Assembly: GCA_944384995.1 (NCBI GenBank)
Contig: CALWVN010000007.1
Location: forward strand, 4,348-68,347
Reading direction: 5' to 3'
Source: an uncultured Clostridia bacterium
Lineage (GTDB): Bacteria > Bacillota > Clostridia > Oscillospirales > Acutalibacteraceae
Length of the DNA stretch: 64,000 nt
In this document: positions 1-40,165 of the stretch, piece after piece
How the letters are laid out: the number at the start of each line of letters is the position of its first letter
How positions within the stretch are numbered: position 1 is the stretch's first letter
The notes under the pieces: generated by a model
Database searches by the model: none
What the model was told of the DNA's origin: nothing
Seen by the model: only the letters and a program-made list of their open reading frames with translations
Position numbers and translations under genes: made by a program

Positions 1-315
1 CAGGATCTTTACGACGGCTACCACACCTTTGCGCTGAAGTGGACGCCGGAATATTATGTATTTTACATCGACGGCAAGCCGACCTGGGCAACATCGGGCG
101 GCGGTGTTTCCAAGGTCAAGGAGTTTTTGCGCCTGACCGTGGAGATCGACGCGGGCGACGGCTGGGGGCCGCACGGACAGAAGATCGGGCAGTTTCAGCA
201 CGAGGGCGACACCGCCTTTTATGTGGATTACGTCAAAGTTTGGCAAAATGAGAATTACGAGCCCTACATCATTGACGATGCCTTGTTCCCCGGTGGGTTG
301 GATATGGCAAATTAA
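1..315 (+). CDS. C-terminal fragment of a GH16-like (jelly-roll beta-glucanase family) protein; 5' end lies outside the window
   Basis: Frame 1 is open from base 1 to TAA at 313-315. The translation QDLYDGYHTFALKWTPEYYVFYIDGKPTW...DTAFYVDYVKVWQNE resembles the conserved C-terminal strands of family-16 glycoside hydrolases. A terminator follows. Confidence 0.55.
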   Translation, partial: QDLYDGYHTFALKWTPEYYVFYIDGKPTWATSGGGVSKVKEFLRLTVEIDAGDGWGPHGQKIGQFQHEGDTAFYVDYVKVWQNENYEPYIIDDALFPGGLDMAN

Positions 316-338
316 GCGCAAAAAACAATGATACATAT

Positions 339-376
339 AAAAATCCCCGCTTTCCATTCAAGCGGGGATTTTTGTA
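339..376 (+). terminator. Rho-independent terminator of the GH16-like gene
   Basis: Hairpin ATCCCCGCT-TTCCATTCA-AGCGGGGAT followed by TTTTTG. Confidence 0.75.
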
Positions 377-394
377 TAGGAGCGCTGCAAACAG

Positions 395-430
395 GCAAAG
401 CAAAAGCTCCGAAACGGACGGTCTCGGAGC
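395..430 (-). terminator. Intrinsic terminator ending the minus-strand non-coding transcript
   Basis: On the minus strand: GCTCCGAGACCGTCCGTTTCGGAGC followed by TTTTGCTTTG. The T-tract is better on the minus strand than on the plus strand. Confidence 0.6.
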
Positions 431-1072
431 CTCTATTTATATCGTTATTCAGTTTTATCCAAGCTGCCCGCTGCGGCGTCAGACTTCACGAAAATCGTTT
501 TGTTTTTGTAGTTCTTTAACGCACTTCTTACAGCGAACGTAGTCAAATTTGTTCTTGGAGATACGATAAAACTCTTACAACTTACATCTTATCTGTCAAA
601 TTTGACCGCAGCGGACAGCGAACCGAATGTCTGCGGTTCTTCAGTCCCTACACCGTACATTGGATTCGCCTCCCTTCGTTTTGTAACAAAAGGCTTTTCA
701 GAAACCACCCGCCGAGACCTATCGCAATCGGCAGAACGATTGCCTTTTGAGAAGTCTCGTGATTCAAAGCACATTTTGAACTCCGCATTTTCGTACCGAT
801 CGGTCTTTCTTCGGACCTTGGGGTTTTTGCCCCTGCGTCACACTGCCGACCTGCAACCGAAGAGCGCCGCGAACGTCTGATCTGCGTCCGCTCCCCCGAC
901 CCTGTTTTACCGAATCTCGTTTCGCCGTGCTTAACGGCAAATCCTTTCAAACGGATTCGAGCCTTACATGCTGCCGGAGTACTTTCCTTTCGGCTCTTAT
1001 ATCTGCGGAGATCCAAAAGCCTTACCACGCCTTGAACCGTTTTGGGGTTTGCTTTGGTTTCTCCCTTTGTTC
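395..1072 (-). ncRNA. Candidate large (~680 nt) structured non-coding RNA, family unassigned
   Basis: Bounded by a near-consensus promoter (1079-1106) and the terminator at 395-430. It holds no credible ORF; the 126-aa ORF at 648-1028 is Arg-rich junk. Many short GC stems are present: 986-993 (CCGAAAGG in the RNA), 940-944/953-957, 924-927/935-938, 820-823/830-833, 802-805/814-817, 763-768/775-780, 724-730/737-743 and 605-611/631-637. Confidence 0.45.
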
Positions 1073-1078
1073 ATCTTT

Positions 1079-1106
1079 ATTATAGCACCGAATTCGGAAA
1101 AGTCAA
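1079..1106 (-). promoter_or_regulatory. Sigma-A-type promoter driving the non-coding transcript
   Basis: On the minus strand: -35 TTGACT (1106-1101), a 16-nt spacer, and an extended -10 TGCTATAAT (1087-1079). It is preceded by a ~35-nt A/T tract (1107-1142) that resembles an UP element. Confidence 0.6.
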
Positions 1107-1227
1107 TAGTTTTTTTTAAATTTTTTATATTTTTTTATATTGATTGTCCATCTTGCCGAAAATCGGTGTTTTTCCCTGTCTACCGTAGCGCAAAACGCGC
1201 AAAATGCAGGGTGGGCAATTTTTACCG

Positions 1228-1256
1228 TTGACTATACGCCCGTTTCGGGGTAAAAT
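1228..1256 (+). promoter_or_regulatory. Sigma-A-type promoter for the DUF1292 gene
   Basis: TTGACT (1228-1233), a 17-nt spacer, then TAAAAT (1251-1256). It is divergent from the ncRNA promoter. Confidence 0.55.
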
Positions 1257-1289
1257 GTAAACAGAATGAAGCTACCAACGGAGGAACGC

Positions 1290-1586
1290 ATGGACGAAGC
1301 ATACAACCCCGACATCGTCAGCGTCGTGGACGAGGACGGTACGGAACATATCTTTGAAGAGCTTGACCGCATTGAAACGGATGACGCGCGCTATGTAGCG
1401 CTGCTTCCCGTTTACGATGAGGCGGAAGAGATCCTGGACGACGACGGCGAGCTGATCATTCTCAGAGTGATTGAGGAGGACGGTGAAACGTACCTCGAGC
1501 CCATTGAGGATGACGACGAATTCAACCGGATCGGCGCTGCATTTGAGGAACGGCTCGCAGATATGTTCGATATCACGGAAGAATAA
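1290..1586 (+). CDS. DUF1292 family protein (small acidic protein)
   Basis: The ATG at 1290 is preceded by GGAGG. The acidic sequence MDEAYNPDIVSVVDEDGTEHIFEELDRIETDDARYVALLP...LILRVIEEDGETYLEPIEDDDEF is typical of DUF1292. Confidence 0.8.
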   Translation: MDEAYNPDIVSVVDEDGTEHIFEELDRIETDDARYVALLPVYDEAEEILDDDGELIILRVIEEDGETYLEPIEDDDEFNRIGAAFEERLADMFDITEE

Positions 1587-1796
1587 AAAACATCAACCTG
1601 CCCGATGCGAGAACCGCACGGTTCAATATTAACCCAACACGTTTTTAAACGGGAGTCGGAATTCCGAGGCGGTGTGCAGACCTCCCGCCCTTTGGCGGAC
1701 GTTGGGAGCACTAAAACCGAGGATAGGCGCCCACCTGCTTTTTGCAGGTTATTATTAGCCGTGCGCGGTCGGGCGGGGATTTTTATACCTGTTTGC

Positions 1797-1843
1797 AGAA
1801 AGCGCGCAGCCCGAACGAGTCTGTTCGGGCTGCGCGCTTTTCG
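1797..1843. terminator. Bidirectional terminator between the convergent DUF1292 and uvrA genes
   Basis: 15-bp stem GCGCGCAGCCCGAAC / GTTCGGGCTGCGCGC, flanked by A-rich sequence on the 5' side and TTTT on the 3' side. Confidence 0.7.
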
Positions 1844-1858
1844 GATTTTACGTTTTGG

Positions 1859-4699
1859 TTATTTGCCCGCCTGTTTTTCAAGCAGCGGCTTGAGATACTG
1901 CCCCGTATAGGACTGTTCACAGCGTGCGACTTCTTCGGGCGTGCCCTCGACGACAACGGTGCCGCCGTTGTCCCCGCCCTCGGGGCCGAGGTCGATGATA
2001 TGGTCCGCGACCTTGATGACGTCCAGATTATGCTCGATGACAACGACCGTATTGCCGCCGTCCGCGAGCTTCTGCAAAACGTCAATAAGGCGGTGCACAT
2101 CCGCAGTATGCAGACCTGTGGTGGGCTCGTCCAAAATATAGATCGTCCTGCCCGTCGGGCGGCGGGAAAGCTCCGTTGCAAGCTTCACGCGCTGCGCCTC
2201 GCCGCCGGAAAGTGTGGTGGCGGGCTGCCCGAGCTTGACGTAGCCAAGCCCCACGTCGTAGATTGTTTGGAGCTTGCGGCTGATCTTGGGGATGCTCGAA
2301 AAGAAGCCGAGCGCCTCTTCCACCGTCATTTCCAGCACATCATAAATGGATTTGCCCTTATATTTGACCTCCAGCGTTTCGCGGTTGAAACGCGCGCCCT
2401 TGCACACGTCGCAGGGAACATAAATATCCGCCAAAAAGTGCATTTCGATCTTCACAATGCCGTCGCCCTGGCACGCTTCGCAGCGTCCGCCCTTGACGTT
2501 AAAAGAGAAACGGCTCGGCGTAAAGCCGCGCACCTTCGCATCCTGCGTTTGGGCAAACAGGTTGCGGATATCTGTGAATACGCCCGTATAGGTGGCGGGA
2601 TTGGAACGCGGCGTTCTGCCGATGGGCGACTGGTCGATATCCACGACCTTATCGAGATTTTCAAGACCTAAAATATCCCTATGCTTGCCCACGGGCTTTT
2701 TCGCGCCGTTGAGCTCATTAGCAAGGCGCTTGTACAAAATTTCATTGACCAGCGAAGATTTACCCGACCCCGACACGCCGGTCACGGCGATGAATTTGCC
2801 CAAGGGGAATTTTACGTTGATGTTTTTGAGGTTGTTTTCCGCCGCGCCGCGCACAGTTAAAAACTTGCCGTTCCCCTTGCGGCGCGTTTCGGGCACGGGG
2901 ATTTTGCGCTTGCCGCTCAAATACTGTCCGGTGATGGACGCAGGGCAGTTTTTGATATCCTCCACCGTGCCCGCGCAGACCACCTCGCCGCCGTGCACAC
3001 CCGCCCCGGGGCCGATGTCCACGATGTAATCTGCGGCATACATGGTGTCCTCGTCATGCTCGACGACCAGCAGCGTGTTGCCGAGGTCGCGCAGATGCTT
3101 GAGGGTAGCGAGCAGCTTGTCGTTGTCACGCTGATGCAGTCCGATGCTCGGCTCGTCGAGGATATACAGCACGCCCATTAAAGACGAGCCGATCTGCGTC
3201 GCCAAACGGATGCGCTGGCTTTCGCCGCCCGACAGCGTGCCCGACGAGCGCGCAAGCGTTAAATATTCGAGCCCGACGCTCGACAGGAATTCAAGTCGAC
3301 TGCGGATCTCGCGCAAAATCTGGTCGGCAATCATGCGGTCGCGGTCGCTCAAATTCAGACCATCCAAAAACTTGAGCGCCGCCGTCACGGACATTTTGGT
3401 GAATTCATAAATATTGATGCCGCCCACCGTCACGCCTAAGGTGATGGGCTTCAGACGCGCACCGTGGCAGTCGGGGCAGTCACAGGCTTTCATAACCTGC
3501 TCGATCTCCCAGCGCGCCCAATCGCTTGTAGATTCCTTATACCGCCGCTCGAGGTTGTTGACAATGCCTTCGAATGCAGCGGTATAGCTGCCCGTGCCGT
3601 AGACATTGGTGCGCTGCATGCTCAGCTTTTCACCTTTTGTACCGTACAGCAAAGCATCGAGCGCCTTTTTGGAAAGGTCACAAATGGGCGTGTCGAGCGT
3701 AAAGCCGTATTTTTTGCCGAGCGCCTCGTAATACATCTGCGCGATGGTGCCGCCCTCGGCATTTGTCCAGCCGCTGGCACGAATGGCGCCGTCGCGGATA
3801 GACAGCTTCTTGTTCGGGATGATGAGATCGGGATCGACCTTTAAAAACGTCCCAAGCCCCGTACAGGTCTCGCAAGCGCCGAACGGATTGTTAAAGGAAA
3901 ACATGCGCGGCGTCAGTTCGTCCACTGAAGCGCCGTGCTCGGGGCAGGCGTAGTTCTGCGAAAACAGCAGATCCTCCCCGCCGATAAGGTTGATGAGCAC
4001 CGTGCCGCCCGAAAGCGACGTCGCCGTTTCAATGGAGTCCGCAAGGCGGCTGCGGATGTCGGGTGAGATCACGAGCCGGTCCACCACGATCTCGATGCTG
4101 TGCTTGAAGTTCTTTTCGAGCTTGATCTCTTCGGAAAGGTCGTACAGATTGCCGTCCACGCGCACGCGCACAAAGCCCGAACGCCGCGCGGCGTCGAGCT
4201 CTTTTTGGTGCTCGCCTTTTCTGCCGCGCACCACGGGCGCCATGACCTGGATCTTTGCGCCCGGTTCCAATTCCATAACGCGGTCTACGATGGTATCCAC
4301 CGACTGCCGCACGATCTCACGTCCGCACACGGGGCAGTGCGGCACGCCCACGCGCGCATACAAAAGCCGCAGGTAGTCGTAAATTTCCGTCACCGTGCCC
4401 ACGGTGGAACGCGGATTTTTGGACGTGGTCTTCTGGTCGATGGAAATGGCGGGAGAAAGCCCGTCGATCGAATCGACGTTCGGCTTTTCCATCTGCCCGA
4501 GGAACATACGCGCATAGGAGGACAGCGACTCTACATACCGCCGCTGCCCCTCGGCATAAATGGTGTCAAACGCGAGCGACGATTTACCCGAGCCCGAAAG
4601 ACCTGTAAGCACCACGAGCTTGTCGCGCGGGATCTCGACATCTATATTTTTCAGGTTGTGCTCACGCGCACCCTTTACCACAATGTGTTTGCTTGCCAT
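1859..4699 (-). CDS. uvrA: Excinuclease ABC subunit A
   Basis: 946 aa. Two ABC ATPase modules ([24 protein letters not shown]), LSGGE signatures and zinc-finger CxxC motifs. Its start overlaps the uvrB stop (TGATG). Confidence 0.97.
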
Positions 4700-12208: not shown

Positions 12209-13331
12209 GTTTTTTCCGTGTTACCAGCACGGCTGCAGCAGCAAGCACCGCCAAAGCAGCAGCCGCGGGAACGGCGGCACCCGTATTGGGAATGTCCACC
12301 GTTTCGGCAGGCGGTTCGGATTCGCTTCCCGGCGCAGTCGTATCGGTCGCCGGCTCTGTTGTAGGCTCGGAAGCGCGCGCCGTATAGGTGAACAGGGTCG
12401 GTTCGCCGTTTTGGAAGCGCGCATAGGCTTCATACGCCTGCAAAAGCTGATAGGTCGTCAAGGGGTCTTCGGCGTTGGCGTAATTCAAGCCGCCGCCGTT
12501 TTCGGAAATAAAGCTTTCCAGCGCCACCACAGGCGACACGCCGTTTTTGCAGTATCCTTCGGCGGTCGGGTCGAGTCCGAGCGCGCACAGCGCCAAAATC
12601 ACCTGCGCCGTGCTCTCCCCGCTTTGGGTGCCGAATACCGCGCTTCCGAACGCACCGGTATCAAACTGCTGCGCTTTAAGATATACGAGCGCCTTGTCCA
12701 CCGCCTCGCGCACGGCTTCGTCCGTTTCATAATACGGTGCGAGCGCCTGCACCGCCATAGCGGTCGTGTCGCAGTCGGAAGAGATCCCCCAGCCTTCATC
12801 TACGCTGCAATAGGGGAACCCGCCGTCCGCCTGCTGCGCGGCAAGAAGCGTTGTAACGACACTCTGCTTTGTGCTGTCGGCAAATTCGAAAGAAGCGCTA
12901 AAATGCATCGCGAGCAGCGGGAAAGCAAGGCTGCTCAAATAAATCTGTGACGTATAATCCACCGTACCGAGCGCCGCGAGCAGGTCGTGCCCGCCGATAT
13001 TTTGCGCATCCAGTCCGCAGGCGGTCGTACTCAACACGATGCGTGCAAGGTCGCTCGGATAAAGCGAATCAAAGCTGTTCTTTACAGCTTCGTCGATATA
13101 ATCGGCATACGCCGCATCTGGCGCAGCGCCCGACTGCGCGAGCGTGAATGCCGTCCAGTCGATAAGGCTGTCGGGGTAGCTTGTGTCCGTATAATCGAAC
13201 TGCGTGTTGTCCGCGTTTTGCAGCCATGCGGTGAGCGCCCGCTGCGGATCGGCGGGCGCGGCAAACACGGTCGTCGTGAACAGCGCGCACACAAGAAGAA
13301 CAGACAAAAGAATTGAAAATACTTTTTTCAT
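12201..13331 (-). CDS. Secreted prenyltransferase/squalene-cyclase-repeat (alpha/alpha-toroid) protein with an LPXTG-like sorting signal
   Basis: Signal peptide MKKVFSILLSVLLVCALFTTTVFA. Repeats QQADGGFPY and QQFDTGAFG. The C-terminus is IPNTG, a hydrophobic stretch, then RKKHV. It lies directly downstream of a cobalamin riboswitch. Confidence 0.75.
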   Translation of the reverse strand: MKKVFSILLSVLLVCALFTTTVFAAPADPQRALTAWLQNADNTQFDYTDTSYPDSLIDWTAFTLAQSGAAPDAAYADYIDEAVKNSFDSLYPSDLARIVLSTTACGLDAQNIGGHDLLAALGTVDYTSQIYLSSLAFPLLAMHFSASFEFADSTKQSVVTTLLAAQQADGGFPYCSVDEGWGISSDCDTTAMAVQALAPYYETDEAVREAVDKALVYLKAQQFDTGAFGSAVFGTQSGESTAQVILALCALGLDPTAEGYCKNGVSPVVALESFISENGGGLNYANAEDPLTTYQLLQAYEAYARFQNGEPTLFTYTARASEPTTEPATDTTAPGSESEPPAETVDIPNTGAAVPAAAALAVLAAAAVLVTRKKHV

Positions 13332-13351
13332 GGCGTTGTCTTCCTTTCGTT

Positions 13352-13554: not shown

Positions 13555-13710
13555 CCTCACCTTCACTTACAGGCAGGTCTCCTGGCTTACGGCCTCCGAC
13601 GCCGCCGCCTTCCCAAAGCATTTGCTTCAGTGGCAAATGGCAGCGCCATACCGTTTACAGTAGCGGGGGCTGTCACGGATTCACACCGTGTTCCCTTTTC
13701 ACTTCGCCCA
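13555..13710 (-). promoter_or_regulatory. Cobalamin (B12) riboswitch aptamer
   Basis: The minus strand reads ...AAAGGGAACACGGTGTGAATCCGTGACAGCCCCCGCTACTGTAA...GCCACTG...GGGAAGGC...AAGCCAGGAGACCTGCC. All hallmark core blocks and the B12 box are present. Confidence 0.9.
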
Positions 13711-13759
13711 AAGCGTTCAACGCCGCGAAGCACCTGTAAGCAAAAATTGAAATTTTAAA

Positions 13760-29189: not shown

Positions 29190-29352
29190 CATTCACCTCC
29201 AAAACATAAAATGACGCTTGCTTTATGAGAAAACAAAAGCCTTTTCCGCACAAAGACGGAAAAGGCCTGATTTACCTTAACAAAAGTAAAGCACTTTTCC
29301 TCGGCAGGCGGGCAAAGCCCTTACGCAAGCGCACCTGCTGTCTTCGGCAAGC
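29190..29352 (-). promoter_or_regulatory. rplJL leader with an attenuator hairpin (L10-leader-like)
   Basis: A 5' UTR of roughly 165 nt (estimated from the promoter position). It contains the hairpin AGGCCTTTTCCG-TCTTTGTG-CGGAAAAGGCT followed by TTTGTTTTCTC (29227-29268). This fits the L10/L12 autoregulatory attenuation known in Firmicutes. Confidence 0.55.
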
Positions 29353-29358
29353 GAGAGT

Positions 29359-29387
29359 ATACTAACACAAGCGACCTTGCTTGTCAA
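29359..29387 (-). promoter_or_regulatory. Internal promoter for rplJ-rplL
   Basis: On the minus strand: TTGACA (29387-29382), a 17-nt spacer, then TAGTAT (29364-29359). Confidence 0.6.
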
Positions 29388-32963: not shown

Positions 32964-33039
32964 CCGGGTGTGGCGCAGTTGGTAGCGCGCGTGGTTTGGG
33001 ACCATGAGGCCGCAGGTTCGAACCCTGTCACTCGGACCA
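32964..33039 (+). tRNA. tRNA-Pro (anticodon TGG), CCA encoded
   Basis: Manual cloverleaf: acceptor CCGGGTG/CACTCGG with a C1-G72 pair, anticodon arm CGTGG-TTTGGGA-CCATG, T-arm GCAGG-TTCGAAC-CCTGT. 76 nt. Confidence 0.9.
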
Positions 33040-33084
33040 GTTGAAAATTACGGGAGGTCCCGTTCTGCGATAAAAACTGCATAC

Positions 33085-33161
<77 letters not shown>

Positions 33162-40043: not shown

Positions 40044-40165
40044 TACAACATCCCCTTTTGTATATATTCAAAGGCGTTGCTGCCTTTGTTTTCAAGAACA
40101 GTATAGCACACATTCGGCAAAGAATAAAGACGGAATTTGAAAATTTTGTTAAAAATCTCTAATTT

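Follow-up and report, generated by a model that had tools for sequence, protein, structure and literature searches.

A predicted stand-alone RNA family with a self-masked mini-ORF in the uncultured Clostridia genus Candidatus Fimenecus

We report that an intergenic gap close to the start of a 64-kb stretch of DNA from an uncultured Clostridia bacterium (assembly GCA_944384995.1, contig CALWVN010000007.1, positions 4,348 to 68,347 of the forward strand; the whole stretch is referred to as the window and its first letter is position 1) holds what is, as judged from the sequence, a free-standing RNA unit on the minus strand, approximately 675 nt long and equipped with its own promoter and terminator. 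The gap, about 975 bp in size, separates a GH16 gene (stop at 315, plus strand) from a DUF1292 gene (start at 1290, plus strand). Comparison with homologous loci (given L numbers below) suggests that the RNA represents a new family outside Rfam with a narrow taxonomic range, and that its conserved core is the AT-rich 3' half, while the GC-rich part is a lineage-specific accessory. The core includes a short open reading frame (ORF) with coding-like evolution, here called the mini-ORF, and a Shine-Dalgarno (SD) region that is predicted to be masked by pairing with the ORF itself. With middling confidence we take the element to be a new family of abundant, stand-alone, mini-ORF-bearing regulatory RNA of the RNAIII-like kind, its function being suggested by its architecture.

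The predicted promoter (1079-1106, minus strand) consists of a -35 box TTGACT (1106-1101), a 16-nt spacer and an extended -10 element TGCTATAAT (1087-1079), with TG at 1087-1086 and TATAAT at 1084-1079. It scored 11/12 plus TG in a promoter scan, and the number of promoter-like sites in the region was three compared to 1.5 expected. An A/T-rich UP-like tract (1107-1142) lies upstream of the -35 box and the GC content of positions 1051-1150 is 0.26. The A-run beside the -35 box (AAAAAAACTATTGAC) is kept in all lineages, and ACTATTGAC and GTGCTATAAT of the promoter are invariant, or nearly so, in 10 aligned sequences. As placed from the -10 box, the transcript would start at about 1072. A weak nhmmer match (E = 8e-4) to a profile of the RNA promoter and 5' end was also obtained at 40055-40141 (minus strand) of the window, which possibly is just another similar strong promoter.

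At the other end, the terminator (396-430, minus strand) has a stem of 430-421 paired with 415-406, a loop at 420-416 and a U-tract at 405-397, and the RNA is predicted to end at ~400. The hairpin, 10-15 bp and followed by UUUUGCUUUG, has an energy of -22.6 kcal/mol compared to -11.3 ± 2.5 in shuffled sequences (z = -4.5). Twelve of its pairs hold across the lineages, nine of these with compensatory changes; a simple terminator scan did not list the hairpin at 430-396. The GH16 gene has a bidirectional terminator of its own at 344-372. The promoter, the upstream A/T tract and the terminator had been pointed out in a preliminary description of the window and stand as described there. The minus-strand transcript (1072-395) folds with z = -5.2 relative to shuffles, and the plus strand with z = -2.7. 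Strains of the window's own species vary strongly in the ~80 bp that separate the terminator from the GH16 stop (312-393), and 394-1142 are conserved among them; the homology of the window to L001 and L010 stops at ~394, which agrees with the predicted 3' end. L001 (8653-8980) and L010, otherwise 98% identical, have ~255 extra bp between the GH16 stop and the RNA terminator.

The homologues were gathered from DUF1292 variants (83-100% identity) outward, and by one metagenome pattern scan. The genus was assigned via the DUF1292 protein as Candidatus Fimenecus, with F. stercoravium, F. excrementigallinarum and F. excrementavium as the nearest named relatives. Fimenecus is a common uncultured genus of gut and caecal Clostridia. 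The RNA, single-copy in the window, occurs in each of the 11 sequence-distinct Fimenecus lineages to which the DUF1292 gene led. In every Fimenecus-like locus it is located between DUF1292, which it always adjoins in divergent orientation, and a neighbour on the other side that varies (GH16, DUF1349, aldose epimerase, DinB-type polymerase or pyruvate kinase). The gene beyond the terminator is convergent in every lineage and its identity differs between lineages. Neither the RNA nor the DUF1292 gene was detected in any of 80 uvrA-anchored loci from other Oscillospirales and beyond, since uvrA is unlinked to the RNA and DUF1292 outside the window's close relatives; a screen of the same 80 loci for ORF-free gaps was uninformative, the genomes being high-GC.

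To compare the locus with known RNA families we used Rfam 15 (4227 models), searching the 64-kb window at the gathering score, and positions 300-1300 on both strands with permissive filters at E<=10. There were five matches at the gathering score in the window, none of them at the RNA locus, and the search of 300-1300 at E<=10 returned terminator-type noise only. Specifically, OLE (RF01071) had no match in 300-1300 at E<=10 and none in the window at the gathering score, and no matches at E<=10 were obtained at the locus for ROOL (RF03087), GOLLD (RF01998), raiA (RF03072) or HEARO (RF02033). RNase P RNA, signal recognition particle (SRP) RNA, 6S RNA and group I/II introns likewise lacked covariance-model matches in 300-1300, the 6S RNA gene of the window being a separate gene. 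For transfer-messenger RNA (tmRNA), ARAGORN predicted no tRNA or tmRNA in 1-3000 and there was no RF00023 match; the mini-ORF here moreover has its own SD and AUG, which tmRNA lacks. The outcome for the homologues L102, L113 and L112 at E<=5 was the same as for the window, with no matches to ROOL, GOLLD, raiA or HEARO. The called neighbours of the locus are GH16, TsaD, DUF1292 and UvrA; none of these was annotated as oapA-like, and no search dedicated to oapA was made. Gene callers predicted no genes in the gap on 10 near-identical contigs, and the longer ORFs of the gap had no Pfam matches. BLAST searches of phage and plasmid collections gave chance A-tract matches or none, and among the matches of three pattern scans of viral contigs (1, 6 and >120) none was homologous by nhmmer. 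The proposal that this is an orphan structured minus-strand unit outside the known RNA families, without the signatures of RNase P RNA, tmRNA and SRP RNA, is hence borne out by the Rfam and ARAGORN searches together with the promoter, the terminator and the fold.

The anatomy of the RNA was derived from two alignments (A1 and A2). In all lineages the promoter, the first ~35 nt (GAACAAAGGGAG...) and the 3' ~310 nt (window 709-396) are conserved. The 5' end forms the 5' strand of a helix, P1, in which RNAalifold pairs 1071-1055 with 707-700 and 693-685 around a GAAAAG bulge. The 5' end and 5' strand (1055-1072, GAACAAAGGGAGAAACCA) include GAACAAAGGGA, which is invariant in all Fimenecus lineages, as is the 6-nt bulge (699-694) in the 3' strand (685-707). 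The sequences CTGAAAAGCC and TTGTTAC of the 3' strand are kept in all lineages, and in P1b an A-U pair has changed to G-C by compensatory change. A pairing of the 5' end with the AUG region was also suggested by RNAalifold; it was weak, with all columns invariant, and the P1 pairing was preferred.

At the tip of P1 the window's RNA has a GC-rich domain of ~350 nt (708-1054, minus strand), here called the expansion domain. It is found only in the window's species group and in two related groups (L095-L100 with L128; L104/L105) and is absent from L102, L107, L119, L130, L135 and L137. Several lineages without it have an RNA of ~345-390 nt, L135 and L136 being longer. L101 has a short unrelated hairpin at the expansion site, and in the F. 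excrementavium group (L091-L094) the site is occupied by 18 tandem copies of the heptamer GCCAAAA. The array (L091 5620-5744; also in L092-L094, L108, L115 and L132) has 88% matches with GCCAAAA as the RNA-strand unit, which resembles the invariant GAAAAGCC bulge region of P1. Where present, the expansion domain together with P1 gives a multi-branch consensus fold (RNAalifold, 12 sequences) with 18 doubly changed pairs; the domain is single-copy and does not occur elsewhere in 2.6 Mb of fetched sequence. L135 (~1690-2226, minus strand) and L136 (~1730-2226, minus strand) have no 5' expansion and carry ~230 extra A-rich nt between a GAAUA motif and the terminator. The RNA is modular, with two sites that tolerate large insertions, the tip of P1 and the region before the terminator. 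The locus had earlier been likened to the OLE, ROOL and GOLLD classes as an RNA of ~680 nt with a GC-rich 5' heart. This picture needs to be reversed: the GC-rich part is the least conserved and lineage-specific, and it illustrates that an RNA may be able to dispense most readily with its most ornate part.

Directly after P1 follows a translation initiation region (658-676, minus strand) with the SD AAGGGAGG (676-669), an 8-nt spacer CGAATCCA (CGAAUCCA in RNA form) and AUG at 660-658, followed by UAC. Every lineage found by synteny retains the SD, the 8-nt spacing, the AUG and the UAC, and this extends to L101, which is the most divergent of them. The AUG opens a mini-ORF of 23 codons (589-660, minus strand; MYGVGTEEPQTFGSLSAAVKFDR, stop 591-589), and every homologue has an ORF of 16-23 codons here. 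The assertion that the gap has no believable ORF needs qualification, given this conserved ORF after a strong and well-spaced SD. In codons 3-11 we counted four synonymous third-position changes, approximately five conservative first-position changes (V/I/L, T/A, G/C) and no second-position changes, in what is a small sample. The distance from the AUG to a conserved CCGCAG is 24, 21, 18 or 27 nt, always a multiple of three, such that all indels are in-frame. The conserved block GGUUCGCUGUCCGCUGCG in the 3' half of the ORF, on the other hand, is read in all three frames across the lineages, and the C-termini are unrelated (TFGSLSAAVKFDR, TWRFAVRCDRI, H-x-VRCPMR and ASYRRATVL). The in-frame indels and the lack of second-position changes followed by three reading frames suggest that the start of the ORF is coding-like and that the rest is constrained as RNA. 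From this we infer that the mini-ORF is translated. The peptides are hydrophilic and acidic, without recognisable motif, and are not conserved after residue ~10. A type I toxin mRNA was considered and rejected, as such an mRNA would encode a small hydrophobic membrane peptide. In L111 a DUF1292 gene (12929-13332, plus strand; 51% identical to that of the window) opens with the exact 20-nt SD-spacer-AUG-UAC block of the mini-ORF, and its protein has a His-rich N-terminal extension of ~40 residues (MYDENACGCGHVHDHE...); this match may be fortuitous or may point to how the mini-ORF originated.

The translation start is predicted to be masked by the ORF that it serves. An anti-SD (617-624, minus strand; GGUUCGCU) inside the ORF can form 8 bp with GGCGAAUC (670-663), i.e. 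the end of the SD and the spacer. L101 has exchanged both strands of this helix compatibly (GGCGAUA with UAUCGCC), and an equivalent helix is predicted in L112, L113 and L126, the probable distant relatives described below. Also within the ORF lies the 5' strand of P2 (605-619, GCUGUCCGCUGCGGU; RNAalifold), which pairs with 463-477 (GCCGCAGCGGGCAGC; RNAalifold and per-pair counts) in a long-range helix of 12-15 bp. One P2 position is C-G, A-U, U-A or G-C depending on the lineage, and L101 has replaced both strands. Inside P2, the 5' strand of P3 (595-606) is the first GUCAAAUUUGAC copy, a 12-nt palindrome GTCAAATTTGAC, and the 3' strand (542-551) is the second copy, which reads CAAAUUUGAC on the RNA. 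A helix of 10 bp joins the two GUCAAAUUUG copies; GTCAAATTTG occurs three times in the 64-kb window compared to 0.25 expected. L091-L094 carry G-to-A in the first copy and, opposite to it, C-to-U in the second, a double change that breaks the palindrome and keeps the pairing. The palindrome and its second copy had been noticed before, with coordinates that were one base off for both; rather than standing apart, the two copies make up one helix. Further towards the 3' end are a small hairpin, P4 (488-498, ACGAUUUUCGU), in which 93% of the cells pair and whose AAAACGATTTTCGT is kept in all lineages except L101, and, upstream of the terminator, a single-stranded A/U-rich motif (444-456, AAAACUGAAUAAC) that is kept in Fimenecus. 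This motif has a 12-mer in common with L112 at the same relative place.

Taking P1b, the SD helix, P2, P4 and the terminator together (41 pairs in alignment A3), 96% of the cells are paired. The number of doubly changed pairs is 17 compared to 7.0 ± 1.7 in shuffles, and none of 500 shuffles reached 17; when the partners were moved by 1-3 columns as a slid control, only 33-50% of the cells were paired.

Outside the loci reached through synteny, the metagenome scan with the pattern RGGRGGCGAWWCCRATGTAC returned 27 loci, eight of which are Fimenecus-type. Three others (L112, L113 and L126) match the layout over their full length: an A-tract and TTGACA promoter, a transcript start GAACCA, the SD:anti-SD hairpin, an ORF of 16-21 codons beginning MY-x-(D/E)-E-T, CUGAAAAG, and (A)ACUGAAUAAC followed by a terminator, with a total length of ~470-510 nt. 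In L123, which ends at a contig edge, only the promoter and the SD-AUG part are in common, and its 22-codon ORF starts with MYTSN. We consider L112, L113 and L126 (full length) and L123 (5' part) to be probable distant relatives, and rate their membership no higher because the pattern made the SD-AUG block common to them by construction. One further match of the scan, L111, is the genuine start of the DUF1292 gene mentioned above. The remaining matches look like chance; about 20-60 chance matches are expected for a pattern as informative as this one, on the rough assumption that ~10^12 bases were searched. In L112 the RNA lies 1.2 kb upstream of an IreB-RuvX/DUF1292 operon, an adjacency that is not general given that the RNA is missing from eight loci of two related RuvX-DUF1292 clusters. 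A tRNA gene (L112 5404-5476, minus strand) is located ~200 nt upstream of the probable homologue on the same strand. The RuvX (YqgF) protein with a C-terminal DUF1292 domain (L112 2755-3522, minus strand), whose gene follows that of IreB, is found widely across one clade of uncultured Clostridia, and most of the 120 matches listed carry both Pfam domains. This fusion may bear on the function of DUF1292, considering the proposed role of RuvX in RNA/DNA processing.

How might such an RNA work? In the model that we favour, a strong sigma-70-type promoter with UP-like tract, -35 box and extended -10 would drive a minus-strand transcript from ~1072 to the intrinsic terminator at ~400, and the quality of this promoter is the reason for predicting high expression. 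The 5' end would pair with 707-685 to form P1, in the window's species with a structured domain of ~350 nt at its tip. After P1 the ribosome-binding site and the 23-codon mini-ORF would be exposed, and a ribosome could load on the mini-ORF during synthesis, before the anti-SD inside the ORF has been transcribed and can pair with the spacer. The 3' part of the ORF would serve as the 5' strand of P2, which closes a domain of ~130 nt with P3 and P4 and is followed by the A/U-rich strand and the terminator. Translation of the ORF must melt both the anti-SD helix and P2, which would make translation and the closed fold mutually exclusive; the RNA could thus alternate between an open state that is translated and a closed one in which the ribosome-binding site is masked. 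Made in large amounts, it would work in trans, as a regulator or by binding protein, in the manner of RNAIII, VR-RNA or SR1, presumably through its conserved 3' domain with the A/U-rich strand beside the terminator. A cis-acting leader is unlikely, since no lineage has a same-strand gene after the terminator.

Several points weigh against such a regulatory RNA. Its start site, abundance and translation are all deduced from sequence. The family is narrow, i.e. one genus plus a few metagenome contigs, and as the scan pattern forced SD-AUG-UAC, the conservation of this block in the distant relatives is a product of the search. The sequences are few and related, and the shuffle controls therefore overstate the significance, so that the figures support the fold and are not to be read as probabilities; the covariation of SD and anti-SD within Fimenecus comes from one divergent lineage, L101. 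The peptides diverge between the lineages after ~10 residues, which argues against a functional peptide. In addition, duplexfold (ViennaRNA) predictions of pairing with the DUF1292 5' region, the 6S RNA and 187 crude start sites in the window gave giant-loop artefacts that were no better than shuffles.

The mini-ORF could alternatively be the purpose of the transcript, which would then be an ordinary mRNA for a tiny protein of 16-23 amino acids, the structured 5' and 3' parts governing only stability and translation. The strong SD, the optimal spacing, the AUG and the presence of an ORF in every homologue fit this explanation, as does the pattern in the first ~10 codons, where changes are synonymous or conservative and indels in-frame. 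We nevertheless regard it as unlikely: beyond MY..EE.PQ the same nucleotides are read in three frames and give unrelated C-termini, the peptide is hydrophilic without recognisable motif, and ~230 nt past the ORF equal or exceed it in conservation and fold into covarying helices. In a further reading, the conserved nascent peptide (MY-x-x-EE-PQ) or simply ribosome occupancy of the mini-ORF could decide whether the SD:anti-SD helix and P2 form, such that the RNA reports the translational state and switches its trans-acting 3' domain, and the tip of P1 could present A-rich GAAAAGCC-like motifs as a display platform and in this way titrate an RNA-binding protein. The platform part draws on the invariant P1 bulge, the 18 GCCAAAA copies in one species and the A-rich loops common in the 350-nt domain. 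This translation-gated riboregulator is a speculative extension that we judge distinctly unlikely as formulated. Ideas about a CsrA-type sponge (two AAGGGAG sites) and a Rho site were also considered and not used. If stalling on MY..EEPQ instead remodelled the RNA and controlled read-through of the terminator, for example antisense to the convergent neighbour, the element would be a leader-peptide attenuator or stalling sensor. It does have a short ORF with a conserved nascent-peptide start upstream of helices that would be melted, a terminator at the end, and two copies of CCGCAG, one in the ORF and one in the P2 3' strand, each complementary to CUGCGG in the P2 5' strand. Yet the next gene is convergent and variable, and none on the same strand is available for regulation in any lineage. 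No conserved alternative pairing over the terminator was found in alignments A2 and A3, and the stem varies freely with compensation; CUGCGG is present in the terminator stem of L091, L102 and L137 but not of the window, and the CCGCAG:CUGCGG alternative is broken in L102. An attenuator is accordingly very unlikely in our opinion.

Two further explanations dispense with a functional RNA. The gap might represent a pseudogene in decay or what is left of a mobile element, its promoter-like and terminator-like sequences being due to chance, in line with the RNA adjoining DUF1292 in Fimenecus and with the 20-nt SD-AUG-UAC block at the start of the intact DUF1292 gene in L111. The preliminary description had named signs by which decay would be recognised, and here the data point the other way: the locus is conserved beyond close relatives, has covarying pairs, and is not replaced by an intact protein gene at any homologous locus. 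No frame shows protein similarity to DUF1292 or Pfam; in tblastn searches with three DUF1292 proteins against 10 RNA homologues the best E was 0.59, with no DUF1292 remnant. The promoter, terminator and helices are kept with compensatory changes across lineages, and the element is single-copy and not in the phage, plasmid and viral collections searched. Decay is thereby largely refuted and highly improbable. Just as improbable is a function at the DNA level, with the palindromes as operators for a regulator of neighbouring genes. This would suit the perfect 12-bp palindrome and its partial second copy, whose starts are 53 bp apart, but in L091-L094 the first copy has lost its dyad symmetry with complementarity between the copies kept by the double change, the sequence is altogether different in L102, L107 and L137, and both sites are 470-530 bp into a terminated transcription unit and distant from every promoter.

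With respect to the surroundings, a 6S RNA gene (RF00013, 51.5 bits, gathering score 46.4) is located directly downstream of DUF1292 at window 1592-1783 (plus strand), ~500 nt from the promoter of the new RNA, and as a result two stable-RNA genes flank DUF1292. The DUF1292 promoter (1228-1256, plus strand; TTGAC, 17 nt, TAAAAT), with a conserved TTTCGGGG upstream (alignment A6), is kept across the lineages and is positioned back-to-back with the RNA promoter at a variable distance. Elsewhere in the window we predicted a cobalamin riboswitch (137.9 bits; 13555-13752, minus strand), an L10 leader (64.7 bits; 29224-29365, minus strand) and two tRNA genes (32964-33158, plus strand).

The regulatory RNA that we favour would, as an apparently highly expressed family, join the few bacterial RNAs of several hundred nt with unassigned function. 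Its architecture is of interest for the self-masked start, for an ORF that doubles as helix strands, and for a hairpin tip that tolerates nothing, a 350-nt domain or a heptamer array. The size of the window copy (~675 nt), its many GC stems with A-rich loops and its occurrence in Clostridia are reminiscent of OLE, ROOL, GOLLD and raiA. In contrast to these, sister lineages do without the ornate part, the AT-rich core has a translation start, and the distribution is a genus-level clade plus a few relatives. In common with the leader attenuators of erm/cat and amino-acid operons, the RNA has a short ORF with a strong SD whose translation would disrupt downstream helices, and a terminator at the end; here, however, there is no regulated downstream gene and no conserved antiterminator, and the masked SD is that of the leader ORF itself. 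The unusually long SD-like AAGGGAGG, with up to eight contiguous pairs to the usual 16S rRNA 3' end, is similar to the STAB-SD of Bacillus mRNAs such as cryIIIA. A second AAAGGGAG 6 nt from the 5' end of the RNA and the predicted high expression add to this likeness, while it differs in that the SD is followed by a correctly spaced AUG and a coding-like ORF and that the SD region is partly base-paired.

The closest parallels are the dual-function RNAs RNAIII/hld of Staphylococcus aureus, VR-RNA of Clostridium perfringens and SR1/SR1P of Bacillus subtilis, a likeness that is architectural and not one of family membership. These are stand-alone genes of several hundred nt, each having its own promoter and terminator, and the element described here appears to be an independent transcription unit of the same kind. 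It also has, like them, a short ORF in a structured RNA, long-range helices that close domains, and a conserved 3' domain longer than the ORF. It differs from them in having no sequence or covariance-model similarity, in a peptide that is kept only over its first ~10 residues, in the hypervariable expansion site of its 5' hairpin, and in an anti-SD that is predicted to mask the ribosome-binding site from within its own ORF.

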